Source of the DNA: an uncultured Coriobacteriia bacterium
GTDB lineage: Bacteria; Actinomycetota; Coriobacteriia; Anaerosomatales; PALSA-660
Assembly (NCBI GenBank): GCA_903831865.1
Contig: CAIKZH010000156.1
Coordinates: 867-64,866, forward strand
Direction: 5' to 3'
Length of the DNA stretch: 64,000 bases
Both the position numbers and the translations under genes were made by a program. Below, piece by piece: positions 2,471 to 18,484 of the stretch. Under the pieces are notes generated by a model. That model was not told the origin of the DNA and ran no database searches. It saw only the letters and a list, made by a program, of their open reading frames with translations. Positions within the stretch are counted from its first letter, which is position 1; the number at the start of each line of letters is the position of its first letter.

Positions 2471-5422
2471 CTACGGAAGACCCCAAAGCGAGCGGAATCG
2501 GGAACCGATCTGAGCCTGTAGGGCCTGGCTCTTCTGCTCGAGGCGCTCCCGCTCCCGACCCACAGCCGATTGGAGACTCATGCAAACCGAGATGAGGACG
2601 CGAGTATCGGCGGTGATGCCATCGTGGGCCTTCACGCTCTCAGCATCGCCGAAGTCAACCTTCGGAACGGGAAGATCCGCCACGACAGCACTCCCCCGGC
2701 TGAAATAGCCACCTCGGAACGGACTCCCTCTCTTGCGAAGAAAGAACTCGGCGGTGGGTTGATTCAGCAGCGCCAGAATGAACTCAAGCGAGTAGCCTCC
2801 CCTCGGACTGGCGATAGCGACCTCACCCGCAGTTCCGCCAGAGGCAAAGCCGACCCCCTGCAAGTCAATCCCGTACTTGTCCCCAAGCTGGTTGACGGAG
2901 TAGATGATCTTGTTTGGTCGAAAGGCGGTCGCCAATGCCTGGTGACGACCATATCGATAGAACTCCCCCTCGGCGGGGGGCGGAGAAACGCTGCGCTGCT
3001 CGAGGCGTGTTCGATATGCCGATAGGTAGAGCCATGCCCCAGGAAACTCGGCCTGCAACCGCTCGGGGGGAATCGGGACCGCCTCGCCGTTGTCTCCGTA
3101 TTCATACGGGAAGATGACAAGGGCATCAGGTTCCACAGGCAAGTAGGAGTGGATACGAGCGGCCGAGTCCATCAGATAGGGTCTGACTAGCGCTTCCTCG
3201 ACATTCCAAGTCCGGCCATCCCGCTCGAACACGATTGAGCCGCCCAAGGATGTCCACTTCGATATCGGGAACACGTCCTCAGCGCTGGTCTGTATGCCGT
3301 TCACAACGTCCGCGATGTCGCCGAGTCTTTCCGAACCCGAGTGGAGAACCGATAGCATGAGCCGCTCCTCGGGTGTCGAAGGAAGCACCCAAGCCTTCCC
3401 GCCAAGGTCACGAATCAAGTCGTTGTCGAGCGCCATTCCCTTGTCGCTCGGACTCGCAAGCCAAGTCACGTAGTCATCAACCCGCCGGTAGCAGACCAAG
3501 GCCCGGGGCGTTTGGGAAAGGACCAAGCAGCAGACATAGGTCGATCGGTTGTGGAACAACAGCTCATTTCCGAAGTCGACTATTTCCGCAACTACGCCCT
3601 TGCGCGCCAGAAGTTGGCGGATCTTCATCCCTGACTCGATGGTCATCCACTTATTCGGCACAACCATTCCCAAAAGGCCCCCCTCCCTGAGCACGGAGAG
3701 TCCCTTCTCGATGAAGACGAAGTACTTGTCGAATTGTCGATAGGGTGTCGAGTAGGTCGACCTGTAGTAGTCGAACTCCCCCAGGCACCTCGTCTTCATC
3801 TCCTCCGTCTTCATGTACGGTGGGTTGCCCACGACGGCGTCGAAGTTCTCGGCCAGGCTCGTGGCCTGCCAGTCGAGCGGTCGAACGAGGTCCATGCTGG
3901 GCTCATCTTTGTAGTCCGGGCCGACAACCGAGTTACCCCAGACCACGTTGGTATCGAGGTTCGGAAGGATCTTTCGGCCTGGAGGGAGAGTCCCGTGTCT
4001 CTCATCCTCGAGGAGTTTCACCAGCAGACTGAACCTGGCCACCTCGACCGCCGTGTAGTCGATATCAACACCGTAGAGACATGCCTTCAGCAGTTCGCAC
4101 TTCACGGCGAAGCGGAGCCGATAGTCGTTCTCAGGCCGACGGTAGACTGCGACTGAGTCGCCCACACGCTTGAAATAGGCAATTGAAGCGTCAACAAGCT
4201 CGTCGAAAGCGCGAAGGAGGAATCGGCCCGAGCCGACGGCGATGTCTACGATGCGAAGTGCCTTGATGTCGTCATACGAGAGTCCCCCTTCGGGGATGAG
4301 CCCAGAGACTGCCCTCCGAACAATCTCATCCACCAGAGGCTGGGGTGTGGTGACAATCTCCCTGCCCTCGTAAGCAGGCTTGTCCTCCAGGACGATGGGC
4401 CCAGCTGGTCCGCCAGCAAGACGCTTGACCAAGAAGTACTCGTATACCTGGCCCAGGAAGTTCGCATCCAGCACGCTGAAGCTGTATGGCGCCCTAGGAA
4501 GGTAGAGCTCCTCAACGATCTCGAGGAATACGGAAGAGGCCAGCGCGTATTGAGTCTGGATCGGGTCGCGGCCGACATCGAAGAGCCCGGTATTGTATCG
4601 ATCGTCCATTCCCTCAAAGAACCGCCGGATTTCCACCAGATCCTGGCCCTCGGCCACCGAGCGAAGTCTTCCCTCCCCCTCGATTCCGCGATCTTCACAC
4701 ATCCGAACGAAGACCACTCGGTTGATAACCTTCTGGGCCAAGTCATTCACTTCGTCGGCGTGGAGATGTGCATATCTGGCCCATAGGTCCTCAGCAATCT
4801 TGAGGCGCCAGTCGTTCAGTCGATCCATGAACATCTTGTCAATGGGGATAGCATCTCCGGCAGCTGCGCCGAACTTGGTATCAAGAGAACCCTGGGCCAC
4901 AGCCTCCCTTCCGAAGAGCGCGAGAAGCTCATCGAACCTCGACACGAGGTCCTCGCAAGGTATCTCCATGAGCAGACCGACGTTCGCATCGTCGGTCACT
5001 TCTGGAGCGGCGTGAGTGTCGTAGACCCTGAAGTCTCGGAAGTTGGTCAATACCGAAACTGGCAGACCGCCGGTCCAACCGTAGCTACGGACCTGAAAGG
5101 CGCTCTCGCGACTTGTTCGGATGTCAACAGACGGCTTCTTCGCCTCGACGAAGAACCTGCGTACGGATTCAATCCGAAACGTGTAGTCAGGCCTCTTGGC
5201 TGACGTCTCAGTGGGCTGCGACTCCTCCCGGACGACGTCCTTGAGGCTGTTTGGTGCGCCGTGCCCGTTCTCCATGTCCCAGTCGAGGGCCTTGAACAAG
5301 GGATCAATGAACTCCACCCGGGCCTCAGTCTCCGTGTAGCCCAAAGCGGTCGAACAGTATCGATCCTGCTCCGCAAGAAACACCGCCACGCGATCTGCCA
5401 CCACTTGTTTCGCTGTCTCCAC
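2471..5422 (-). CDS. Type IIG restriction enzyme / N6-adenine DNA methyltransferase fusion (Eco57I-like)
   Basis: N-terminal PD-(D/E)xK-like motif (RPDY...VEAKK). SAM motif I (VDIAVGSGRF). Motif IV NPPY (VGNPPYM). Long C-terminal specificity region. Start placed at GTG 5422, which has a G-run upstream and lies 17 nt after the upstream stop. The ATG at 5521 would overlap the upstream gene by 83 nt. Confidence 0.85.
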   Translation of the reverse strand: METAKQVVADRVAVFLAEQDRYCSTALGYTETEARVEFIDPLFKALDWDMENGHGAPNSLKDVVREESQPTETSAKRPDYTFRIESVRRFFVEAKKPSVDIRTSRESAFQVRSYGWTGGLPVSVLTNFRDFRVYDTHAAPEVTDDANVGLLMEIPCEDLVSRFDELLALFGREAVAQGSLDTKFGAAAGDAIPIDKMFMDRLNDWRLKIAEDLWARYAHLHADEVNDLAQKVINRVVFVRMCEDRGIEGEGRLRSVAEGQDLVEIRRFFEGMDDRYNTGLFDVGRDPIQTQYALASSVFLEIVEELYLPRAPYSFSVLDANFLGQVYEYFLVKRLAGGPAGPIVLEDKPAYEGREIVTTPQPLVDEIVRRAVSGLIPEGGLSYDDIKALRIVDIAVGSGRFLLRAFDELVDASIAYFKRVGDSVAVYRRPENDYRLRFAVKCELLKACLYGVDIDYTAVEVARFSLLVKLLEDERHGTLPPGRKILPNLDTNVVWGNSVVGPDYKDEPSMDLVRPLDWQATSLAENFDAVVGNPPYMKTEEMKTRCLGEFDYYRSTYSTPYRQFDKYFVFIEKGLSVLREGGLLGMVVPNKWMTIESGMKIRQLLARKGVVAEIVDFGNELLFHNRSTYVCCLVLSQTPRALVCYRRVDDYVTWLASPSDKGMALDNDLIRDLGGKAWVLPSTPEERLMLSVLHSGSERLGDIADVVNGIQTSAEDVFPISKWTSLGGSIVFERDGRTWNVEEALVRPYLMDSAARIHSYLPVEPDALVIFPYEYGDNGEAVPIPPERLQAEFPGAWLYLSAYRTRLEQRSVSPPPAEGEFYRYGRHQALATAFRPNKIIYSVNQLGDKYGIDLQGVGFASGGTAGEVAIASPRGGYSLEFILALLNQPTAEFFLRKRGSPFRGGYFSRGSAVVADLPVPKVDFGDAESVKAHDGITADTRVLISVCMSLQSAVGRERERLEQKSQALQAQIGSRFRSLWGLP

Positions 5423-5438
5423 GTTCCCCCCGAGTGGC

Positions 5439-7109
5439 CTACTGCTCGACACCCGTCCGCAGTCTCCTGTGCCGCAATCGGCTCCACGCTTGGTGAATGA
5501 CTTCGCGTTCATGTTGTCCAAGACCTACCGCCCGCAGCACCACTTCGTCCTGCTCGACCAGTATTTGGTCCGCTTCCTCGTGTGAGCGTATCCGTCTGTC
5601 GAGATCCGCCAAGCGTCCGGCCCGCGGCTCCACGGCGGGGATGACAAGTCGCTCTATCTCAGACGGGACCAGTTCCAGGACCCCCCCACCGTAGTGCCTG
5701 CCTTCGAGCTCCGCCGTCAGTGCGGTCAGACTGTTCACGAATGAGTAGACGAGCGCCTCGAGAGACGGCGCTTCGGCCTTCGGCTTGATTCGATAGGCTG
5801 TGTCGGTCGTGTAGGCCCCCGCGGTGTTCAGGATGAGGCGGGGGAACACGCTTGACCGCTTCAGCATACCGATTGGCGTCGCATAGACAGACGGGACCGA
5901 GTACCACGGTTCTCGAATCCTGCACTTGTAGCGCTGCGGCAGCCCCTGCGCCTCACCGCGGGCAATGTACGCCTTCGGGCCCTCCGCAAGACTCTCGCTG
6001 GGTTGCGTCCCGAGGGCAACGAAGTTCGCCGGGAGCCCTCGTGCCCGATTAGCTTCGTGCATGGAATCGTCGTAGATGACTCCAGGGCAGTGTTCGCTCC
6101 GTCCGAACATCGGCGCAGTGAACTCCCCGAGGCCGTACTGGCTAACGACACTGTCGTTGACCAAGAAGAACGCATTCGCACCCGTGACGATTCCTACGTC
6201 GACGGTCGCAACATCCCTGAACGCACGCACTCCTGGAAGTTCGATGGCGCTGTCCAAGACCCGGAGTTCATCTGGCGACAAGAGAACCCTCATCCACTTT
6301 CCGCGCAGGACATCCCCGGACAGATACTGGGCATCTCTGAAGACTGGCACAGGGTCCCTGTCCAAGAACGCGTTGTCTGACATAGGGAGCACGCAGACGC
6401 CTTCGGATGCCTCGCCGTCGGTGCGCTTCTTTTCGAGAAGCAGGAGCACCGTCCCTTGTAGGGACTTGTCGAACAGCAGTTGTGCAGGGTCGATGACCAG
6501 AATCCTCTGGCATTGAGCAACTAAGAACTCGCGCAGCGACCCAGCGTGCAGGATATGGAGAATCTCGGCCGGGATGACCATTGCAAGCCGGCCACCGGCC
6601 TCGAGGAGTCCAACGCTGGCAATCACGAACGGCACCCAAGCGTTCGTGTGGCGGGTAAACCGAAGGCTCTGGCGAGCGAAGATCTGCTCCGAGAGCACTT
6701 GGTCTCTTGGTTCGAGGTACTGGTATCGGACATAGGGGGGATTGCCGAGAATGCCACCGAACGTTGCCCCGGCAGACATAGCGTCAAGACTCCACTCGAG
6801 GAAGTCGGCCGTCAGAACATCAGCATTCGCTGCCCAGCCATCGACTGCACGGCGTGACTTAGCCGCTTCCTCCGGCAGCCGCTCCACTCCCAGGAAGTCC
6901 ACATCCTGACGGCCCAGTTCGCGGACTGCCGTGATGAACGCCCCGTCTCCACAACTCGGCTCCAGCAGCGAGGAGGGCCGCGCGCTCAAGACCCACCGCG
7001 CTAGGAAGCGAGCTATCACGTGAGGCGTGTAGTAGCCGCCCCGCAGCTTGGTCGTCGATTCCTCTGCCTTGAATCTCGTGGCCGATCTCCCTGTCAGATG
7101 AGCGCACAC
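5439..7109 (-). CDS. Stand-alone N6-adenine DNA methyltransferase (gamma class, TaqI/Eco57I-M-like)
   Basis: 556 aa. Motif I EPSCGDGAF. Motif IV GNPPY. C-terminal target-recognition-type region. Sits immediately upstream of the Type IIG gene on the same strand. Confidence 0.85.
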   Translation of the reverse strand: MCAHLTGRSATRFKAEESTTKLRGGYYTPHVIARFLARWVLSARPSSLLEPSCGDGAFITAVRELGRQDVDFLGVERLPEEAAKSRRAVDGWAANADVLTADFLEWSLDAMSAGATFGGILGNPPYVRYQYLEPRDQVLSEQIFARQSLRFTRHTNAWVPFVIASVGLLEAGGRLAMVIPAEILHILHAGSLREFLVAQCQRILVIDPAQLLFDKSLQGTVLLLLEKKRTDGEASEGVCVLPMSDNAFLDRDPVPVFRDAQYLSGDVLRGKWMRVLLSPDELRVLDSAIELPGVRAFRDVATVDVGIVTGANAFFLVNDSVVSQYGLGEFTAPMFGRSEHCPGVIYDDSMHEANRARGLPANFVALGTQPSESLAEGPKAYIARGEAQGLPQRYKCRIREPWYSVPSVYATPIGMLKRSSVFPRLILNTAGAYTTDTAYRIKPKAEAPSLEALVYSFVNSLTALTAELEGRHYGGGVLELVPSEIERLVIPAVEPRAGRLADLDRRIRSHEEADQILVEQDEVVLRAVGLGQHEREVIHQAWSRLRHRRLRTGVEQ

Positions 7110-7989: not shown

Positions 7990-8550
7990 ATGTCCGAGAA
8001 CGCACTTTCCGAACCTTGGCTCGGCCTAATGGAGCGGCTCGACTCCGATGTGGCCGACGTGCGCTACTGGGCGGTCTCCGAGGCCGGGAGTCGCGCCGTG
8101 GTCGGGCAGGTACTGCCCCGAGCTGTGAAGGACAAGCTCGTCGACCTGCTCAGCAATCCGTCGGGGGACGTGCGCGCCGATGCATGCTGGGCACTGGGGC
8201 AAGGCGGGGCCACCTGGGCGGTCGCCGACATCGAGGATCGGTTGCGCGACGAAGAGGAAACGCCGGGCGTCAAGGCTCGTGCCGTCGAGGCCCTGCGCGA
8301 ACTCAAGGCCACCGGCTCCGCGAAGCTGGTGCTCCCGCTGCTGCACTCACCTGAGGCGGACCTGCAAACGGCAGTGATACAGGCCGTTGGCTTTTTCGGG
8401 GTCAGCGAGGCGGTCCCCGAGCTGATCACCTTGATGTACTCGGAGAATGGTTGGATCTCCGACAACGCGGTGGATGCCCTGGCGGCGATCGGCGGGTCTG
8501 ACGCCGAGTCGGCTGTCTCCGAGTTCCGAGCGAAGATTGGAGACGAGTAG
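7990..8550 (+). CDS. HEAT-repeat protein (PBS-lyase HEAT-like repeats)
   Basis: 186 aa. AAAGGGG upstream of the ATG. Repeated D(V/L)R..A..ALG helical-repeat units (DVRYWAVSEAG, DVRADACWALGQ, VKARAVEALREL, LQTAVIQAVGFFG, NAVDALAAIG). Confidence 0.75.
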   Translation: MSENALSEPWLGLMERLDSDVADVRYWAVSEAGSRAVVGQVLPRAVKDKLVDLLSNPSGDVRADACWALGQGGATWAVADIEDRLRDEEETPGVKARAVEALRELKATGSAKLVLPLLHSPEADLQTAVIQAVGFFGVSEAVPELITLMYSENGWISDNAVDALAAIGGSDAESAVSEFRAKIGDE

Positions 8551-8781: not shown

Positions 8782-9405
8782 ATGAAGAGTACCCACTCCG
8801 TACTGATTCCTTGCCCCGTCTGCTCAGGAACGCAGCTCACCCACGGGCTCGGCAATCCCGTCCTCGATCCGCCCTACGCGCCGTTCGGCGCGGTTTGGGG
8901 CTGCGCCGAGGGCTCACCGATCGGTGTCCTTCGCACACGCGGCCACGACTGGCGCTTCGACAAGTGGAGCGTGGACGGACCGGTGCTGTGGCGCTGCCGG
9001 ATGTGCAACGCCGTCGCCAAGATGGTGTCGCGCGAGTCGTTTCGTGCGTCCGCGACCAAGCCTCACGCGGTAATCATGGCAAAGGTCACCGCCAACCGGC
9101 TCGCGAGCGGGCAGACGCCGATCGCGCCCTGCGATGTGTGCGGCGGCCTGGGTGCGGTGCTGGCTCCAACTGACGGCGAGATGTCGGGCGATGGGAGCGA
9201 TCCGCGGTGCCCCATCTGCTGCAAGAGCGACCGCATTGTGCTCGTCGTGCCCGCCGACGAGAACCTGGACGTCGAGACGCTGGAGCGCGCCGCGTTCGGT
9301 GAAGTCGTCCTTGCCCGGGACATCGATCCCTCGACGCACTACTGCGGCCGCTGCGACCTCCGGTTCCTTGTCTTGCCCTGCTCCCCGGAGGCGGGACTGC
9401 GATGA
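8782..9405 (+). CDS. Cys-rich multi-zinc-ribbon protein with DnaJ-type CxxCxGxG motif
   Basis: ORF 8752..9405 trimmed to ATG 8782 (AAAGGAGAGGG upstream). Five CxxC pairs (CPVCSG, CRMC, CDVCGGLG, CPICC, CGRC). Stop overlaps the next start (ATGA). Confidence 0.6.
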   Translation: MKSTHSVLIPCPVCSGTQLTHGLGNPVLDPPYAPFGAVWGCAEGSPIGVLRTRGHDWRFDKWSVDGPVLWRCRMCNAVAKMVSRESFRASATKPHAVIMAKVTANRLASGQTPIAPCDVCGGLGAVLAPTDGEMSGDGSDPRCPICCKSDRIVLVVPADENLDVETLERAAFGEVVLARDIDPSTHYCGRCDLRFLVLPCSPEAGLR

Positions 9406-10706
9406 AGCGACGCACCTTCACCCTGCTCGATAGCATGCCTGTGCAGGAGCGCGACCGCGTCCTCGAGGCGCTGGCGAGCGAGGGCCCGCAGCTTTCCGAG
9501 CTGCTGCTCGAAATTGCGCTGCGTGCCCGAAAGGCGGGCAGGTCTGATCTGGCCTACGACCTCTACCACGAGGTGCTGTCGCAAGAGGGTGCGCGTCACC
9601 GTCGCAGCGGGCGGCTTGTGGCGGCGGCCTATCGCGCTCTATACGAGATCGCCATCCAGAACAAGGACCACAAGCAGGCCCTTCGCTACGCGGGCCTCAT
9701 GGGCGAGACCACAAGTGATGGCCGTACGCGCCGCGCCGCGCGGCGCATCGTCGAGAGACTGCAGCGCCTGTGCGAGGAGCCGACCTCTCATGGGATCGCC
9801 CACACCGCTGCCGACGAGGTCCTGTTGCGAGGAGGCGAGCCGCCGGGATACGTCGGCAACGCGCTTGTCGAGCTGCAGCCGCAGCAGCCTGAGCTGCGCC
9901 TTTGTGACGTGGGCGGCCTGGCCGCAGCCAAGCGGGCGATCCATCGCTACGGCATTCTTCCCATGCAGGACCCATCACTCGCAGAGCACTTCGGCATGCG
10001 AGCGGGCGGCGGCATCCTGCTATACGGACCTCCGGGGTGCGGCAAGACGCTGCTCGCCCAAGCTGCCGCCGGCGAGATGGGCGTGCCGCTTCTCGTAGTC
10101 AAGAACAGCGAGGTGCTGCATCCGCTGTTCGGAATGGCGGAGCGCAATGTCTCGCGCGCGTTCGAGGTGGCGCGCGCCAGCGCGCCCTGTGTGCTGATGT
10201 TCGACGAGATCGACGGCATCGTGCCGCCGCGAACCCGTGACTCGCACGCCGAGCACCGCAGCGTCGTGAGTGCCTTTCTTGTCGAGATGGACGGCACCGA
10301 GCGAAACGACGGGGTCCTCGTGGTCGCGACGACCAACGCGCCCGAGCTGGTCGACGGCGCACTGAAGCGCCCGGGCCGTTTCAGCCGAGAGATCCTTGTG
10401 GGACGTCCTGACCCTGCCGCTCGTGAGGCGATCTGGCGACTGAGGCTCGCCGGCCACCCCTTCGCCGAGGACATCGACCTGGCGCAGCTCGTGGAGCTGT
10501 CCGAGGGGCTGACGGGAGCAGACATCGCCGGTGCGGTGCTGGATGCGGTGGAGGCCGCTTGGGTGCAGAGCGCCGAGGAGAAGGCCGTCCGCGAACCGGG
10601 CATGCTGGACTTGCTCATCGGCCTGCAGCGCGCACGAACCGAAGGCCGCGCCAAGAACCGCATCGACGCGATCATCTCCGAGCGGCTGGGAAGGGAGCTG
10701 GAGTAG
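9402..10706 (+). CDS. AAA+ ATPase (classic Cdc48/FtsH/SpoVK-type AAA module) with helical N-terminal domain
   Basis: Walker A GPPGCGKT. Walker B VLMFDEID. Second region of homology TTNAPELVDGALKRPGRF. Translationally coupled to the zinc-ribbon gene. Confidence 0.85.
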   Translation: MKRRTFTLLDSMPVQERDRVLEALASEGPQLSELLLEIALRARKAGRSDLAYDLYHEVLSQEGARHRRSGRLVAAAYRALYEIAIQNKDHKQALRYAGLMGETTSDGRTRRAARRIVERLQRLCEEPTSHGIAHTAADEVLLRGGEPPGYVGNALVELQPQQPELRLCDVGGLAAAKRAIHRYGILPMQDPSLAEHFGMRAGGGILLYGPPGCGKTLLAQAAAGEMGVPLLVVKNSEVLHPLFGMAERNVSRAFEVARASAPCVLMFDEIDGIVPPRTRDSHAEHRSVVSAFLVEMDGTERNDGVLVVATTNAPELVDGALKRPGRFSREILVGRPDPAAREAIWRLRLAGHPFAEDIDLAQLVELSEGLTGADIAGAVLDAVEAAWVQSAEEKAVREPGMLDLLIGLQRARTEGRAKNRIDAIISERLGRELE

Positions 10707-10866: not shown

Positions 10867-12126
10867 TCAGTCGATCGCCGCCAGCGCTTGCTTCGCGTCC
10901 TCGATGTGGTCGCGCAGAATCTCCACCTGACGCTCCAGATCCTTGCGCGCAATGTCCATCTCCGCAACGATCTTGCGGCCGGTGTTCTCGATCGTCTGAC
11001 CCCAAGTTCGCACGTCGTCGGTCTTCTCAGCACGCTTGGCCACCGACTCGATCGCCTTCTCCATCGCGTCGAAGTCGACATCGGTCGTGGGGAGACTCGC
11101 ACGCTTGCCCTCGAAGACAAGGGCCTTCGCAAGCGTGATGGCAGCGTCCAGCCACAGGTCGGTCGAGGGGTCGTCGGCGTCCCACACGACGACGATGTCT
11201 CGCCCGCAGCGCCGAAGGGTCTCAACGCCGGCGGGTGCAGTACGCGCCGAGAAGATGAACACACCGACCTGCGCGCCGCGGTTTCTCCGACCCTTCTCGA
11301 TCTCCTCGAGGGCGCCGGCGAGGGTGTAGCTGCGGTCCTCCTTCGCCTCGAAGACGATCTTCTCGCCCCCGCAGGCACTGTCGGAGGAGAGCTCCATGAC
11401 GCAGTCACCAACCTTGCAGTTCTTGATGACGCCGGTGGTGGCGCCCGTGGCCGAGGCGATGTCGCCCGCACTCGACGCTTGGTTGATGACGTACTCGACC
11501 ACCGCGTCTTCGAACGCCAGCCCGTGTGTCGTCCCCCGCGCTTCGGCGTCCTTGCGCACCGCGATCTCAAGAAGTGTCTTCTCGACTTGCTCCCGGAACT
11601 CGGCGTTCGCCTTCTCGTGTTCGTCGAGTGTGCCGTTGAGCTGGCGCAGCAGTCTAGAGAGTCCCGAGTTCTCGTCGTCGAGGGAGAACTCCTTGCGCAG
11701 CGTGTCCTGCGAGTCGCGTACGTGCGCGACGAGCCGGGAGAGCGGGGAGCTAGCGTCGTCGAGGCTGAACGCGCCGAGGATCTGCTGGCCATTCTTGCTC
11801 AGGTCGGCATCGATCGCCTCGCGCAGCTGCGCGACCAAGCCGTCGGCCTGCTTGGGATCAAGGGTCTTCATGATCCGGCTCTCGGGCCCGACCATCGCGG
11901 TCATGGCGTCGGTGACCTCGCGCTCGATTTCGTTGGTAAGCTGTTTGCCCTCGTCCTTGATCGCCTGGCGGTCGATGAACCCCGATGCCTGTCGCAGGGC
12001 CAGCACCCCTATGCGCAGCGCGGTCGCCGCCTTCGTTGGACGCTCTGCATCCTCGAACTCGCTCAGCCAGGCGAGGACCTCAGGGTCGTCGATGGTCAGG
12101 GTAATCTCCATCGGCTCATTCGACAT
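10867..12126 (-). CDS. Coiled-coil protein with PD-(D/E)xK-like nuclease core (hypothetical)
   Basis: 419 aa. Long charged helical regions flank VGDCVMEL...IVFEAKED (a D...ExK motif) followed by GVFIFSA. No named family recognised with certainty. Confidence 0.65.
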   Translation of the reverse strand: MSNEPMEITLTIDDPEVLAWLSEFEDAERPTKAATALRIGVLALRQASGFIDRQAIKDEGKQLTNEIEREVTDAMTAMVGPESRIMKTLDPKQADGLVAQLREAIDADLSKNGQQILGAFSLDDASSPLSRLVAHVRDSQDTLRKEFSLDDENSGLSRLLRQLNGTLDEHEKANAEFREQVEKTLLEIAVRKDAEARGTTHGLAFEDAVVEYVINQASSAGDIASATGATTGVIKNCKVGDCVMELSSDSACGGEKIVFEAKEDRSYTLAGALEEIEKGRRNRGAQVGVFIFSARTAPAGVETLRRCGRDIVVVWDADDPSTDLWLDAAITLAKALVFEGKRASLPTTDVDFDAMEKAIESVAKRAEKTDDVRTWGQTIENTGRKIVAEMDIARKDLERQVEILRDHIEDAKQALAAID

Positions 12127-12399: not shown

Positions 12400-12703
12400 A
12401 TGACGAGGGAGAAGCTGTCACCCCTCGCCGAGGACGCCGACCTGATCGCGAGCGCGATCCTCGCGGTGGCGAAGCAGTACGAGGACAGCGAGGTGCAAGG
12501 GTCCGCCCACCTCAAGGTGACCATGCCCGACGACTCGCGCAAGCAGCTTAGAGTGGTCGTCGCTCAGGACCCCAGGATCGTGCGCCCGAAGGACCTGCTG
12601 AGCGACATCGAGTTCGTGGCCTACCAAGCGAACCGGTTCGGGGGTCGTCATGGTGCAGCCACTGGAGGACGGTCCCGCGCTGATTCGCAAGATGGGCTGC
12701 TAG
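12400..12703 (+). pseudogene. Small hypothetical gene with apparent frame break at a G5 run
   Basis: ATG 12400 opens MTREKLSPLAEDADLIASAILAVAKQYED...EFVAYQANRFG. After GGGGG (12640-12644) the +1 frame (VVMVQPLEDGPALIRKMGC-TAG, ending 12703) keeps high G/C third positions, while the original frame drops to a low-bias, Arg/Ser-rich stretch. Confidence 0.4.
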
Positions 12704-12753
12704 CCCGACCCGCTCGCTCTCGCAGCGCACACCAGATTGAGGGGAACTCGCAG

Positions 12754-13992
12754 ATGGTCGCTCGGAACACGGCACTGAACGCCCGGCAGCTCGAGGTCCT
12801 GCGCTGGATATCGGATGGCTGCCCGCAGGGCGTCATGCAGGACTTCACCTACAAGCTCACCGCTGTGGCTCTGAGAAGCCGGCGCCTGGTGACGCTGACC
12901 AAGAGAGGGGGCTGGGCGGCGACTGTAACCGACGCCGGGCTCCACTATCTCGAACACGGGTGCTACCCGGAGGCACCCCTACCCAAGTCAGGGCCGGGCG
13001 GGAAGCCTTCTCAGCCGAAGGTCAAGCCGACAGACAAGCTCAAACCGAGCAATCCGGCACCACCCTCAAGGCAGGCCAAACCGGCGGCCACGCCGACTAG
13101 GCGACCGGAAGCGTCCAAGAAGCAGCGACCGACCACAGAAGCCCAGACGGTCGTGGTGCCCGCTCGCCTCATTCACCCGCACGCCGTGGTTGCCCAGCTG
13201 CGTGATGACCCCTATCGACTGGACCTGTCGGGAACAGTCCGCAACCGAGCGCTGCGCATCATCCAGGGGCTGGCGGCCACGGCGGAGCAGGAAGGCTGGC
13301 GCGTCGAGCCAGTGGCCTCGCGGCGAGACGACTACGAGCGCACGACATGGGAGTCGGGCAGCGACTTCGTCATCTGCACCGATGAATGCAGAGTCGGCAT
13401 CAGGTTCGTCCAGGAGAAGCAGCGCAGCCCGCATGTGCCCACCAAGCACGAGCTTGCGGAGCGGTCGAGGTACGCCTGGGCATTCGTCCCGAAGTACGAC
13501 TACACGCTCATCGACAGACTCCGTCTGGAGTTCAAGTCCGCCTACTGTCCCGGCCAACGCAGCAACTGGGCCGACCGCGTCCGCTGGTCTCTGGAAGACA
13601 AGCTGCCGCAGGTCATCGAGGGAGTCGCCGCGCGAAGCGAGTACGCAATGCAGCAGCGAATCATCCGAGAGGAGCGTGAAGTCGAGTTCGCGAGGCAGAG
13701 GGAGCTCGCCGAAGCCAGGGCACGCGATCAGCTTAGGGAGAACCACCGAGCCGAGGCGCTTCTGCAACAGTGCGCGAACTGGCACCTGGCCTGCGAGCTG
13801 CGGACATACCTGGACGCCGCGACGCAGCAGATCGAGGTGACGGCTGACCCTGATGAGGCGCAGGCCACCGGGGAGTGGCTTGAATGGGGACGTCGATACG
13901 CTGAGGACCTCGATCCGCTGAACTCGCCAATCGCGGCACCGCCGGACTCTGAACCCTCGGCCGAGGAGCTGAGGGCGTTCCTTCGCGGCTAG
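12754..13992 (+). CDS. wHTH-domain protein with Pro/Lys-rich linker and large C-terminal domain (hypothetical)
   Basis: ATG 12754 is preceded by GAGGGGAA. N-terminus RQLEVLRWISDG...LVTLTKRGGWAATVTDAGLHYL looks like a winged helix. The rest is unassigned with a coiled-coil tail. The ORF track shows it fused in frame to 10888..13992, whose first 1.5 kb is antisense shadow. Confidence 0.6.
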   Translation: MVARNTALNARQLEVLRWISDGCPQGVMQDFTYKLTAVALRSRRLVTLTKRGGWAATVTDAGLHYLEHGCYPEAPLPKSGPGGKPSQPKVKPTDKLKPSNPAPPSRQAKPAATPTRRPEASKKQRPTTEAQTVVVPARLIHPHAVVAQLRDDPYRLDLSGTVRNRALRIIQGLAATAEQEGWRVEPVASRRDDYERTTWESGSDFVICTDECRVGIRFVQEKQRSPHVPTKHELAERSRYAWAFVPKYDYTLIDRLRLEFKSAYCPGQRSNWADRVRWSLEDKLPQVIEGVAARSEYAMQQRIIREEREVEFARQRELAEARARDQLRENHRAEALLQQCANWHLACELRTYLDAATQQIEVTADPDEAQATGEWLEWGRRYAEDLDPLNSPIAAPPDSEPSAEELRAFLRG

Positions 13993-14204
13993 GACACCGC
14001 CCTGCATGGTCTGTGCCCGGACTACCCTAGTTATCTGGGTCGCCGCCGATCGTTCTCCCGGATTGGCTTGCGGTGGTCATAGGGGGATAGAAGCCTCCGC
14101 AGGTGGAAACGAGATTAATGTGTTCGCTGCCTTGCGACACCTCGACGATGTCCTGACGGAAGACGATGAAGCCGCTAGCAGCGCCCGAGACGTAGGGGGA
14201 ACAG

Positions 14205-14972
14205 GTGGACGACGCGGTGGACACTGTTGAGGTCGCGATTCTCACGCGGCTGCTCGAGGGGTCCGGGCTCTCGCCCGCGGCCCTGAACGAACGCGTGACC
14301 GGCAGCCCTGGCAGCGTCGAGCAGTCAGTTGAGAGGCTCGTCGGCCGCGGAGTGATTCGGCGTTCCGTCGGAGGCAACCTGTTCGTGCCCCGAGACCAGC
14401 GGCCCGGCGTCGGACGGTTGTTGGGGATCGAGCCAGCGACACCCGCGGACGTGATCGAAGTCGTTCCCGAAGCCCCGCCGCGCGACCGTCCCGAGTTCTT
14501 CAACGATGTCTTCGACCATGCGACGTACATGTACAAGCTCGAAGACTCCATCTCTGGTGCCCGTTCCGCATACGAGAACACCGTGCGCAAGATGCGCGTC
14601 GGCGATCTGATTCTGGGCTACCTGATGGATCCCTACAGCGAGTGGGTCTGCATCCTTCGGGTGGCCAAGGCGCCCTACCGAACGTCTGAGGAACTCCACG
14701 TCTTCAAGGACCTGCCGTGGAAAGTATGCGGAGAGTTCATCGCCGCGCTCAATCCTGGCGACGGGATACCGAGGCTCGAGGCTGCAGACGAGGCTCGGGC
14801 GCTGGGAGGCAAGGCCGCTCCGTATCGCGACTCCCCGAAACGGGTGAACCCCGTCGCGGCCGGGGTCATCATCAGGGGAATCCTCGAATCGCAGCGGCAT
14901 CATGGGAGCGCGGTCGAAGTCACCGATCCGGGACCGGGATTCCTTGAGATGTTCACGGGCGCGCGAGCGTGA
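14205..14972 (+). CDS. wHTH + EVE/PUA-like domain protein
   Basis: 255 aa. GTG start with GGGGGAA upstream. N-terminal MarR-like wHTH (LSPAALNERVTGSPGSVEQSVERLVGRGVIRR). C-terminal block MRVGDLILGYLMDPYSEWVCILRVAKAPY resembles the EVE/ASCH PUA-like core. Confidence 0.55.
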   Translation: MDDAVDTVEVAILTRLLEGSGLSPAALNERVTGSPGSVEQSVERLVGRGVIRRSVGGNLFVPRDQRPGVGRLLGIEPATPADVIEVVPEAPPRDRPEFFNDVFDHATYMYKLEDSISGARSAYENTVRKMRVGDLILGYLMDPYSEWVCILRVAKAPYRTSEELHVFKDLPWKVCGEFIAALNPGDGIPRLEAADEARALGGKAAPYRDSPKRVNPVAAGVIIRGILESQRHHGSAVEVTDPGPGFLEMFTGARA

Positions 14973-15526
14973 GGGTCAGTCAGGTCACCTGCGTTGGGAG
15001 GTGTCTTGGCAGCCGCTGGCGAACCAGCAGCGTTCTGGCCGATCCCGCGGGCGTCCTCCAGCGCGTCTTCAGCCAGAGCCATCGCGGTGTGCGTCCGGAA
15101 GCGGCCCTCTCCCCATACACCAGGACGCCCTGCGGACTCCGAGCGAAGATGCCAGCATCGCGGCAGACCGACTTCACGGATCCGATCAGTGCACTGAGCC
15201 CTTCACCTTGGGGGCCCCCGTTGCGAAGGAGCCGGCAGCGACGGCACTGGCCGCTAGCACCGTCTGATGGAACCGCATGGGATCATTATGGATGCCAACA
15301 AGGGGTCTGATTGCGGCCGCTAGCAGCCCCCGCGTCTCGCAGAAAGCGCGCGCACACGACCTCAATGTCGCCCGTGATTGTGAGTACTAGGCTCAAGTAG
15401 AGTCTCCACATGGTGGCCAAGCACGAGGTCTTTGGACGACGTGGTCGGCGCGGTCGTCTACTGTGTTGGTCAGACCGCTCACAGCCCGCTCGCCTGACCG
15501 CCGCACCTCTCGAGAGAGTCTTCCAC

Positions 15527-16192
15527 ATGGAGAGCCCTTGGGGCACCTTGCCGGAGAAGCCGCCCTACGTCCTCGGTTGCGACGCCTGCTATGTGGATGC
15601 GTTCAATGCTAAGGCTGATCACGATCACCGGCTACAGTTGGACTTGCTGCCCGAGCCGTTTCTCGGCCGCGTCGACGCCCCCATCGTGCTCCTCGGTCTG
15701 AATCCAGGCTTCACCGCCAAGGATGTCCCTGCGGAGCACTCATCGGACTACGTCTCGCGCTGGCACAGCAACCTAATCCACGCCCCCGCGCGCTACCCGT
15801 TCTACTTGCTGGACCCTTCGTTGGACGCACCCGGACGGAAGTGGTGGGAGCAGAGACTCGGCCAGCTCGTGAAGGCCACGAGTCAACGCGGTGTGGCGAA
15901 TTCCGTCCTGTGCGTCGAGTACTTCCCGTACCACTCGCGCAAGTACCAAGCGCACGCGGTGCTGCCATCACAGACGTACGGTTTCGAACTAGTCCGGTCG
16001 GCACTGGATCGTGGCGCACTCGTGATCGCCATGCGCGGCCTGCCGTTGTGGAAGGCCGCAGTCCCTGAGCTTGAGGCCCGCTCCCATGCTATGCGCAGCC
16101 CTCAGAACCCGACGTTCACGAGGCGCAACTGTCCGGATGCCTTCGACCAGGCGGTCGAGATGGTAAGCGCGGGAAACTGGTCGCCGGCCTGA
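15527..16192 (+). CDS. UDG-superfamily-like protein (MUG/TDG-type GxNPG motif), function unknown
   Basis: ORF 15410..16192 trimmed to ATG 15527. PEPFLGRVDAPIVLLGLNPGF resembles UDG motif A (GINPG in MUG). VEYFPYHS is a possible motif B. More A/T-ending codons than neighbouring genes. ATG 15410 is an alternative start. Confidence 0.5.
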   Translation: MESPWGTLPEKPPYVLGCDACYVDAFNAKADHDHRLQLDLLPEPFLGRVDAPIVLLGLNPGFTAKDVPAEHSSDYVSRWHSNLIHAPARYPFYLLDPSLDAPGRKWWEQRLGQLVKATSQRGVANSVLCVEYFPYHSRKYQAHAVLPSQTYGFELVRSALDRGALVIAMRGLPLWKAAVPELEARSHAMRSPQNPTFTRRNCPDAFDQAVEMVSAGNWSPA

Positions 16193-16418: not shown

Positions 16419-17354
16419 ATGGACAGCACCATCACTGCACTGCTCCGAGGGATACGGCTCGGAGACCCGGTCGGGACGCACGGGCTCACGTTCGTGCCGG
16501 TCTTCTGCAAGGTCCCACCGGGACCGGACTACCTCACGTTGGCGGAAGCCGTGGAAGCGGACTCGCTGGTCGTGACGGAGATGGACGCGGGCGCCACTGT
16601 GCCCGCGCTTGAGGCACACAACGTGAGCGCGCGGCCCGTGCTGATCCTGGACGGCGAGGAGCTGTTGGGCGCCAAGCAGAACCGCGTCCTGAACACGACG
16701 GTGCTCATCGCTGCGGGCAGCAGCTACAAGTTGCCGGTGACGTGTGTGGAGCAGGGCCGCTGGAACATGGTGTCGGCGCGCTTCGCTGCGTCGGGACACC
16801 ACGCGACCCGCAACATCCGTGCGATCAACCACCGCGCCGTGGCCGAGAGCCTGCGCGCCGCGGGCGGCTACGAAGGAGCCCAGGGCAAGGTCTGGCAAGA
16901 GGTGAGGTCTCTTCACGCCAGGCACGGCGTCATCTCGCGGACCGAGGCGATGTACGACGCCTACGAGAGTCGCGCGGCCGAGGTCGGCGAGCTGATCGGC
17001 GGAATCACGCCACTGGAGGGTCAGAACGGCCTCCTCGCGCTGCTGGGCGGTGAGGTCCTCGGGCTCGACGTGGTCTCCAGACCGAGCGCCTACGCTCGAG
17101 TCCACGACAAGCTCGCGCGCAGCTACGCAGTGGACGTGACGGCCGCCAAGGCAGTCTCTCATACGCTCGATCTGGCCGCTGCGAAGCAGTTCGTCGCGTC
17201 GCTCAGCGAGATGGTCGGCACGGAGCACGACTCACCGGGGATGGGCCGCTCACACCGCTACACGTCGGAGTCCATCGTCGGCTCGGCGCTGACCTATCGC
17301 CGGGTGCCGGTGCACGCCGCGTTCTTCGCAGCGAAGCCGGGCGGCGATCGCTAG
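16419..17354 (+). CDS. DUF6569 / ARPP-1-like family protein
   Basis: ORF 16392..17354 trimmed to ATG 16419 (GAGGGAA upstream). LTFVPVF...YLTLAEAVEADSLVVTE...VPALEAHNVSARPVLILDGEELLGAKQNRVLNTTVLI...LPVTCVEQGRW matches my memory of that family. Confidence 0.55.
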   Translation: MDSTITALLRGIRLGDPVGTHGLTFVPVFCKVPPGPDYLTLAEAVEADSLVVTEMDAGATVPALEAHNVSARPVLILDGEELLGAKQNRVLNTTVLIAAGSSYKLPVTCVEQGRWNMVSARFAASGHHATRNIRAINHRAVAESLRAAGGYEGAQGKVWQEVRSLHARHGVISRTEAMYDAYESRAAEVGELIGGITPLEGQNGLLALLGGEVLGLDVVSRPSAYARVHDKLARSYAVDVTAAKAVSHTLDLAAAKQFVASLSEMVGTEHDSPGMGRSHRYTSESIVGSALTYRRVPVHAAFFAAKPGGDR

Positions 17355-17692: not shown

Positions 17693-18484
17693 TTGGTGTC
17701 GCCCACAGCTCCCCGCCGGCCGCTGGTCGCGCATGTGCCGCACGCTTCGACCGCCATCCCTTCGCGCGCGAGGCGCAGCATCGTCTTGAGCGAGCACGAC
17801 CTGCGAACGGAAGTCGTGCGGCTGACCGACTGGCACGTGGATGAGCTCTTCTCATGGATTCCGGAGATCGGCGGCGCGCTGTTCGCAAGTGCGCTCTCGC
17901 GTCTGGTGTTCGATCCTGAGCGGTTCGCGGATGACGACGAGGAGCCGATGGCCGATGCGGGCCAGGGCGTCGTCTACACGAAGACCACCGACGGAGAGCA
18001 GCTCGCGCAGATCAGCATCAAGGAGCGAGAGCGCAGGATCCGGGATCTCTACAACCCCTACCACGAGGCGCTCGCGGCTCTTGTGCCCTCGATGCTCCAA
18101 CAGTTCGGCACCGCGCTCATCTTGGACTGCCACTCCTTCGCCACGGTCCCGCTGCCGAGCGAGATCGACCAGAGTCCTGACAGGCCGGACATCTGCATCG
18201 GGACGAGCCCGTATCACACGCCGGCTGAGCTCTCGGCCGGACTCGTTGCCGCCTTCGAGTCGGAGGGCCTGACCGTGGAACTCGATCGTCCGTTCCCGGG
18301 CACGCTCGTCCCGCGCCGGTTCCTCGGCACGGACTCTCGCGTGCGCTCGGTCATGATCGAGGTCCGGCGGGGCTTGTACTGCGATGAGTCGAGTGGCGAG
18401 CGCGGCCCGGGCTTCGAGTCCACACGCAGTGCACTGCAGAGGGCGGTGACCGCCGGCATCGCCCCAACCCTGAGCACCGTGTGA
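17693..18484 (+). CDS. N-formylglutamate amidohydrolase (FGase) family protein
   Basis: 263 aa. AHVPHASTAIP, LVFDPERF and LILDCHSF are typical FGase-family blocks. Confidence 0.75.
   Translation: MVSPTAPRRPLVAHVPHASTAIPSRARRSIVLSEHDLRTEVVRLTDWHVDELFSWIPEIGGALFASALSRLVFDPERFADDDEEPMADAGQGVVYTKTTDGEQLAQISIKERERRIRDLYNPYHEALAALVPSMLQQFGTALILDCHSFATVPLPSEIDQSPDRPDICIGTSPYHTPAELSAGLVAAFESEGLTVELDRPFPGTLVPRRFLGTDSRVRSVMIEVRRGLYCDESSGERGPGFESTRSALQRAVTAGIAPTLSTV

Follow-up and report, generated by a model that had tools for sequence, protein, structure and literature searches.

A putative Brig-related DNA glycosylase gene and a winged-helix-EVE gene, side by side in an apparent defence island of an uncultured Coriobacteriia bacterium

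Two neighbouring genes are considered here, both on a 64,000-nucleotide (nt) stretch of contig CAIKZH010000156.1 from an uncultured Coriobacteriia bacterium (below, the window; GC content, ~66%): one encodes a winged-helix protein with a C-terminal EVE domain (P1), and the other encodes a putative DNA glycosylase related to the Brig enzymes (P2). A sequence-only reading of this DNA had proposed that the two form a new module in which a reader of modified bases is paired with a glycosylase that excises them. Both open reading frames (ORFs) are as that reading described them, on the same strand and 554 nt apart, with the segments MRVGDLILGYL and EWVCILRVAKAPY in P1 (Table 1). Taken together, our analyses favour another view, namely, that P1 and P2 are probably two independent genes, neighbours within a defence island that was acquired horizontally, P2 being a Brig-type glycosylase and P1 a separate reader. 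A new reader-glycosylase module is unsupported on present evidence. What is new here is a pair of families, one Brig-related and unnamed, the other rare and of winged-helix-EVE type; that a Brig enzyme can have a PUA-like partner was already known.

P2 as a relative of the Brig glycosylases

The single NCBIfam match of P2 is antiviral_Brig1 (NF047634), with an E value of ~1e-9 and 38.1-38.6 bits, far below the equivalog cutoff of 230 bits and covering profile positions 41-156 of 254. The same model is the only NCBIfam match for 30 of 30 aligned members of the P2 family (best E = 3e-12), and hhalign aligns the family with Brig1 over P2 residues 31-141 (E = 2.5e-5, 75% probability). The Brig1 sequence used in this alignment was taken from the supplement of the original paper (PMC11078745), with two optical character recognition errors corrected via the DNA sequence and the published residue numbers. 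Searches of P2 against Pfam, PADLOC, PHROGs, and the PDB sequences returned no match.

Brig1 is an anti-phage alpha-glucosyl-5-hydroxymethylcytosine (alpha-glucosyl-5hmC) DNA glycosylase from actinobacterial environmental DNA (Hossain et al., Nature 2024, PMC11078745), and Brig3 and BapA are, respectively, a 5hmC glycosylase and an ASCH-like deglucosylase (bioRxiv 10.64898/2026.02.25.707755). P2 resembles Brig1 in that it is of similar size, has a single domain, and is encoded by a stand-alone gene, located here in a defence island, the organism being rich in GC (66%). The two share a core, P2 residues 31-141, marked by PEPF/PDPW, VLLGLNPG, W106-W107/Y121-W122, E131/E147, and (F/Y)P(Y/W)HS. 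Position by position, hhalign places P2 LLPEPF on Brig1 QYPDPW; IVLLGLNPG, with N59-P60, on LVVLGLNPG; W106 on Y121, which is required in Brig1; W107 on W122; E131 on E147, also required; and FPYHS on YPWHS, just after that essential glutamate. The correspondence extends to Brig3, in which N50-P51, W100-F101, and H125-x-D127 resemble N59-P60, W106-W107, and C129-x-E131 of P2, and in which N50 (P2 N59), W100 (P2 W107), and D127 (P2 E131) are all required; this second correspondence is one of residue pattern and spacing only, drawn from the description in the preprint and not from a sequence alignment. The preprint equates Brig1 Q81/W122/E147 with Brig3 E55/W100/D127 (bioRxiv 10.64898/2026.02.25.707755).

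Counterparts of the residues needed in Brig1 and Brig3 by mutagenesis are all present in the window P2, and conservation across 120 family members is high at the core positions and beyond: N59 (120 members), P60 (119), W106 (116), W107 (117), E131 (118), Y135 (120), H136 (120), R170 (120), N201 (119), and D66 (102). The two best-conserved blocks are LLGLNPGF and FPYHS. The former had been picked out from the sequence as a glycosylase motif and proves to be a meaningful one, in that LNPG corresponds to the catalytic Asn-Pro of Brig3. We regard P2 as a probable member of the Brig family in the broad sense, i.e., a homologue of Brig1 and Brig3 and, through them, a relative of the uracil-DNA glycosylase (UDG)-superfamily enzymes that act on modified phage DNA, as the sequence-only reading had suggested.

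P2 also differs from Brig1. Identity over the core is ~25%, the C-terminal 80 residues do not align, Brig1 N145 is replaced by Cys, Brig1 Q81 has no clear counterpart (possibly P2 D66), and the ADP-ribosylglycohydrolase (ARG) neighbour reported for Brig1 is absent. Given these divergent pocket positions and the low score against Brig1, the substrate of P2 is not predictable. Could the family act on another base altogether? Because its pocket differs, with Cys in place of Brig1 N145/Brig3 H125 and a conserved Asp at position 66, the P2 family may target a different modified base from Brig1 and Brig3 and could thereby extend the known substrate range of glycosylase defence. DNA glycosylases are themselves recent as anti-phage effectors, Brig1 dating from 2024 and Brig2, Dag1/2, and Brig3 from 2025-26.

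The family to which P2 belongs is unnamed and without a Pfam model, and its ~220-amino-acid (aa) proteins number several hundred across many phyla. At least 290 homologues were found in a 5.8-billion-protein database; the 119 listed matches other than P0001 are ~215-235 aa long and 42-52% identical, come from many phyla, and are all labelled "hypothetical." The P2 gene sits inside a longer ORF (15410-16192, plus strand), within which ATG 15527, giving the 221-aa form, is the real start, because the database protein P0001 is 221 aa long and 100% identical and because all homologues begin at the same NPW motif. Position 70 of P2 is Glu, where 111 of the 120 members have His, in the D-x3-H stretch that the family conserves beyond LNPGF; since a His comes one residue later in P2, the difference may reflect a shift of one residue in the alignment rather than a true substitution.

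No domain fusion among P2 relatives was informative, and none involved EVE. Two relatives of 340-353 aa (P0032 and P0078) share a C-terminal extension of ~120 aa, and a third of 402 aa (P0061) carries a different one of ~180 aa. The family was not found in IMG/VR viral contigs. Remote relatives occur on plasmid and phage records (26-32% identity), including NZ_CP054921.1 (68830-69531), NZ_LR594667.1 (356728-357333), and two uncultured human-gut "Bacteriophage sp." records, MT837357.1 and MT836197.1 (26-27% identity). On Streptomyces linear or large plasmids, such relatives adjoin IS5 transposases, and on Variovorax megaplasmids they lie among hypothetical genes and a SLATT protein.

Fold and proposed mechanism of P2

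The AlphaFold2 (AF2) model of P2 has a predicted local distance difference test (pLDDT) score of 81.6 and a predicted template modelling (pTM) score of 0.81, with a pLDDT of only 53-58 in the LNPG strand. A UDG fold is assigned to P2, provisionally, solely through the link via Brig1. As a control, Brig1 itself was searched and gave no Pfam UDG match; one P2 relative has a marginal, in-register Pfam UDG match (E = 0.11).

The sequence-only reading had likened P2 to MUG/TDG glycosylases. The relation to the UDG superfamily stands, via Brig1 and Brig3, but assignment to MUG/TDG (UDG family 2) was rejected: P2 has no Pfam UDG, PDB sequence, or Foldseek match, and only the short NPG motif is similar. 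The likeness consists of Asn-Pro-Gly after a hydrophobic beta-strand (LNPG in P2 and GINPG in MUG/TDG) and of the superfamily relation through Brig1. Likewise, FPYHS, earlier taken as resembling motif B, is conserved and has its Brig1 counterpart, but the link is to Brig and not to MUG/TDG. In P2 this block comes after the strand bearing E131, whereas the canonical UDG motif B lies elsewhere in the fold.

At one Vicinamibacterales locus (L046, 6001-7501), the P2-family gene is directly followed by a second, glycosylase-like gene that passes the Pfam UDG threshold (E = 9e-6, family-4-like), and the pair would be two different UDG-superfamily genes in tandem. In hhalign, the P2 family and this family-4-like protein show no similarity.

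The best-supported reading of P2 is that of a stand-alone, Brig-type enzyme that defends by base excision. The homology, the residue conservation, the lack of co-occurrence, and the island context are observed, whereas enzymatic activity, substrate, and defence function are inferred by analogy with the characterized enzymes, as follows. In the DNA of an invading phage, P2 would act on a non-canonical pyrimidine, probably one modified at C5, flipping it out and into a pocket formed by W106/W107 stacking, by E131 as an acid facing the base, and possibly by D66. The N-glycosidic bond would then be cleaved with help from N59-P60 of the LNPG loop, and the resulting abasic sites would fill the phage genome and block its replication.

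P1 as a winged-helix-EVE protein

P1 had been described from its sequence as a MarR-like winged helix joined to an EVE/PUA-like C-terminal domain, and this architecture is borne out by structural matches for the first part and by profile links to EVE proteins and structures for the second. In the AF2 model, the N terminus forms three helices and a beta-hairpin (pLDDT, 70-87), and Foldseek against the PDB returned the winged helices of MarR, MexR, PcaV, DtxR/IdeR, and BirA with a probability of 1.0 and a root mean square deviation of 2-3 Å over 70-80 residues, but with E values of only ~1e-3 to 1e-2. The same segment has weak sequence matches to helix-turn-helix proteins of the Lrs14/AsnC type; Pfam gave no MarR match for P1.

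The model of the C-terminal domain is poor (pLDDT, 30-67, from only four sequences), and the domain was therefore examined by profile searches, which support its prediction as an EVE/PUA-like domain. Pfam EVE (PF01878) matches 50 residues of P1 below threshold (E = 0.0028, 18.1 bits versus a cutoff of 23). A profile of the domain found 69 proteins among 1.84 billion representatives; setting aside the family's own five leaves 64 remote relatives, and Pfam EVE is found in 36 of the 64 when these are scanned. Beyond the family itself, P0128, in which EVE is fused to HNH, is the best match (E = 2.5e-23), and the EVE-bearing relatives are fused to HNH, GmrSD_N, Mrr_cat, AAA_5, SIR2, or NACHT, which are the usual partners in modification-dependent restriction. 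In addition, the profile of the P1 family (A6) matches, over the full domain, PH1033 (PDB 1wmm, E = 3e-12) and MJECL36 (2p5d, E = 2.5e-11), both classed as UPF0310, which we take to be EVE-domain proteins. The P1 family proper is very rare, with ~five clusters at E < 1e-30 in the 1.84 billion representatives, and two metagenome scans and one viral scan yielded no further P1 loci.

P1 resembles the VcaM4I-type EVE-HNH enzymes of modification-dependent restriction (PMC7897488) in that its nearest non-family relative is such a fusion. It differs from EVE-nuclease enzymes in that it has no nuclease or other effector domain, the partner domain being instead a DNA-binding winged helix; any nuclease would therefore act in trans. 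The winged-helix-EVE family would in this respect be a useful case of modification sensing separated from cleavage.

Four foreign loci of the P1 family are readable (L001, L002, L003 with three short duplicate contigs, and L091), and three of the four have restriction-endonuclease-fold neighbours. The P1 relative is accompanied by PDDEXK_13/REase-ARP in L001 (10001-11807), by Mrr_cat and an SNF2/NOV_C helicase in L002 (492-7892), and by a 193-aa ORF with a D...ECK motif in L091 (458-1897), which suggests a P1-family reader with swappable nuclease partners. These relatives adjoin restriction-endonuclease-fold genes and not glycosylases. The most likely role of P1 is to bind modified DNA, either on behalf of a nearby-encoded nuclease, for which it would be the sensor or specificity factor, or as a regulator. 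In the window, the 530-aa or the 419-aa upstream neighbour could be that nuclease partner; PDB sequence searches with both were empty, and family searches gave no assignment. The L091 relative has its winged helix and its EVE domain in two separate ORFs, through either a frameshift or a genuine split.

Do P1 and P2 form a module?

If P1 and P2 worked together, would they not be found together elsewhere? Neighbourhoods were compared for 77 P2-family loci, one genome per species, from Planctomycetota, Chloroflexota, Acidobacteriota, Proteobacteria, Cyanobacteria, Saccharibacteria, and others. A tblastn search of these loci with P1, with ARPP-1, and with all remaining neighbours from the window gave no match, a broad EVE hidden Markov model (HMM) built from 70 sequences had no match among the ~750 ORFs flanking the P2-family genes, and all-against-all clustering of those ORFs found no neighbour family in more than 4 of the 77 loci. 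Starting from P1, neither P2 nor a P2 HMM detected a P2-like gene in the four readable foreign loci, and no Brig-like domain is fused to any of the 70 EVE relatives. The 215-aa gene that follows an EVE-only relative in L003 was considered as a P2-like glycosylase and rejected (hhalign E = 0.58); it looks like a spurious Arg/Ala-rich frame. Outside the window, the arrangement of P1 and P2 is seen only in two metagenome contigs, which are 98-100% identical to the window and thus represent the same organism and not independent occurrences. The proposed pairing of reader and glycosylase thus recurs nowhere else, whether one sets out from P2 or from P1, and by the test that the sequence-only reading had set itself, it falls. 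Its novelty falls as well, since a PUA-like partner for a Brig glycosylase has been published (Brig3-BapA, 2026 preprint).

The likeness to Brig3-BapA lies in a PUA-like protein encoded beside a Brig glycosylase. The conserved operonic pairing of that system is not seen for P1 and P2: the brig3 and bapA ORFs overlap in one operon, whereas P1 lies upstream of P2 across a gap of 554 nt. BapA, moreover, has two beta-barrels, a catalytic D101, and no winged helix, whereas P1 has a winged helix and one EVE domain.

That P1 and P2 are independent genes is the reading we prefer, and several observations weigh against it. The AF2 model of P2, searched with Foldseek against the PDB and BFVD, matched no UDG or other fold (E > 1). 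Most genes next to P2-family members are housekeeping genes or of heterogeneous kinds (serine recombinases at 4 loci, GNAT acetyltransferases at 4 loci, and many housekeeping genes), with only scattered PADLOC matches, and the family has no established role in defence. Independent P1 loci are very few (three informative loci and short contigs). The published Brig3-BapA pair is a precedent for a PUA-like partner, and a motif common to the upstream region of P1 and the P1-P2 gap hints at co-regulation.

Alternative readings

The motif in question is a 17-nt repeat, GCCGCTAGCAGCnCCCG, with a palindromic GCTAGC core. Allowing one mismatch, its 12-mer core occurs 3 times in the 64 kb against 0.71 expected, only upstream of P1, where the copy abuts the ribosome-binding site, and in the gap. 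The gap itself shows no three-base GC periodicity, has flat GC by codon position, and contains only short broken ORFs; no Rfam match, consensus sigma-70 promoter, or terminator was found in it. The idea that it is a relic of a nuclease gene like those adjoining P1 relatives was rejected, there being no tblastn signal. The motif is a candidate operator to which the P1 winged helix might bind. It was found post hoc, it is not conserved upstream of P1 relatives, and as evidence for co-regulation of P1 and P2 it is weak.

Could P1, then, be a transcription factor? It would repress its own gene's neighbour P2 and autoregulate at GCCGCTAGCAGC sites, the inducer being a modified nucleotide or modified DNA that the EVE domain senses, and the link between the genes would be regulatory and not catalytic. 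The MarR-like winged helix fits such a role, as do the scarcity of the motif, its palindromic core, and the placing of its three copies, one before P1 and two upstream of P2. Yet the motif was chosen after the fact, and a single exact 12-mer pair is no great surprise in 1.6 kb of DNA with 65% GC. The motif is not conserved upstream of P1 relatives, no promoter was detected in the gap, and the relatives have different downstream genes. We consider this reading unlikely.

It is also doubtful, and to a similar degree, that P2 is not an anti-phage protein at all, being instead a glycosylase that repairs endogenous lesions, or an enzyme of some other activity on a Brig-like scaffold. The neighbourhoods and the missing structural match described above would fit such a role, and Brig enzymes keep residual uracil activity (bioRxiv 10.64898/2026.02.25.707755). 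However, the family has a patchy distribution over different phyla, with identities of only 30-50%, some of its members adjoin serine recombinases or insertion sequence (IS) elements or sit on plasmids, as is typical of accessory genes, the window gene lies inside a defence island, and the only annotated relative is an anti-phage enzyme.

Quite improbable, in our view, is a lineage-specific pair in which the EVE reader recruits the glycosylase, hands DNA over to it, or widens its range as BapA does for Brig3: the genes are adjacent on the same strand, share the upstream motif, have the Brig3-BapA precedent, and keep their arrangement in the two metagenome contigs, but those contigs are not independent, neither the 77 P2 loci nor any locus of a P1 relative has the pair, and both the gap and the architecture of P1 are unlike brig3-bapA. 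We give equally little credence to a related proposal, that a winged-helix-EVE reader and a Brig-like glycosylase were newly combined in this lineage, the reader binding modified phage DNA or GCCGCTAGCAGC sites and licensing expression of the glycosylase or targeting it. If true, this combination would be an independent invention of the Brig3-BapA design, with a non-catalytic reader instead of a deglucosylase.

Genomic surroundings

The surroundings of P1 and P2 (Table 1) appear to be a horizontally acquired defence island, the GC content and the GC content at third codon positions (GC3) of which are below those of the rest of the window. GC3 is 0.78 in P1 and 0.76 in P2, compared with 0.84-0.92 in most genes beyond ~25 kb. 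The atypical codon usage earlier ascribed to P2 is real in this sense, but P2 is not alone in it, most ORFs between 7.4 and 20 kb being likewise low (0.78-0.86).

Table 1. Coordinates of P1, P2, the motif copies, and neighbouring genes in the window
Feature	Position (nt)	Strand	Basis or remark
Type IIG restriction-modification enzyme, Eco57I-like, 1016 aa	2471-5521	-	PADLOC, E = 8e-234
M.Eco57I-like methyltransferase, 556 aa	5439-7109	-	
HEAT-repeat protein	7990-8550	+	
Cys-rich, putative zinc-ribbon protein, 217 aa	8752-9405	+	Judged by eye; no family match
IetA-like AAA ATPase	9402-10706	+	PADLOC, E = 4e-38
419-aa protein	10867-12126	-	Very weak Mrr_cat match, E = 0.058
530-aa protein of unknown function	12400-13992	+	
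Motif copy 1, GCCGCTAGCAGCGCCCG, 17 nt	14171-14187	+	18-34 nt upstream of P1 start
P1, winged-helix-EVE protein	14205-14972	+	255 aa, GTG start; ORF and database protein P0121 (255 aa, identical)
P1 N-terminal winged helix-turn-helix, residues ~1-72	14205-14420	+	AF2 and Foldseek
P1 C-terminal divergent EVE (PUA-like) domain, residues ~95-251	14487-14972	+	Profile searches
P1-P2 intergenic gap, apparently non-coding, 554 nt	14973-15526	.	GC by codon position, ORFs
Motif copy 2, GCCGCTAGCACCGTCTG	15250-15266	+	In gap, upstream of P2
Motif copy 3, GCCGCTAGCAGCCCCCG	15316-15332	+	In quasi-palindrome 15302-15331, ~195 nt upstream of P2 start
P2, Brig-family (UDG-superfamily-related) putative DNA glycosylase, stand-alone gene	15527-16192	+	NCBIfam and hhalign
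ARPP-1 protein	16419-17354	+	Pfam, E = 5e-85
FGase-family protein	17693-18484	+	Pfam

The type IIG enzyme looks complete and, with the methyltransferase that follows it (2471-7109, minus strand), lies in a stretch of lower GC content (0.58-0.62). The gene for the IetA-like ATPase overlaps that of the Cys-rich protein by 4 nt, with the HEAT-repeat protein upstream; no IetS-like protease is encoded near the ATPase, and the locus therefore does not qualify as a canonical Ietas system. In the 530-aa protein, a helix-turn-helix-like segment and a coiled-coil tail accompany a possible nuclease-like motif, SDFVICTDECRVGIRFVQEK.

ADP-ribosylglycohydrolase genes lie beside brig1 (PMC11078745) and brig3 (bioRxiv 10.64898/2026.02.25.707755), and ARPP is a component of ARG-centred conflict systems; for this reason, the ARPP-1 protein downstream was tested as a partner of P2. 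It was rejected in that role, being absent near the 77 P2 loci and travelling instead with the FGase and HEAT proteins. It was also rejected as a counterpart of BapA when set against the published ARPP fold, a duplicated beta-meander with an inserted barrel, a comparison made by description and not with the BapA sequence. In the ARPP-1 loci, neither P1 nor P2 is found. One such locus (L086, 7001-10823) encodes ARPP-1 and FGase proteins 60% and 58% identical to those of the window, with an ARG gene nearby, and another (L087, 7001-14220) encodes ARPP-1 (48%), FGase (38%), and HEAT (53%) proteins. In the window, 8 kb separates the parts of this set, P1 and P2 being among the genes in between. ARPP-1, FGase, and HEAT thus appear to form a conserved module of their own, with P1 and P2 placed within it or next to it, and the set is apparently a variant of the ARG-centred conflict systems that has not been described.

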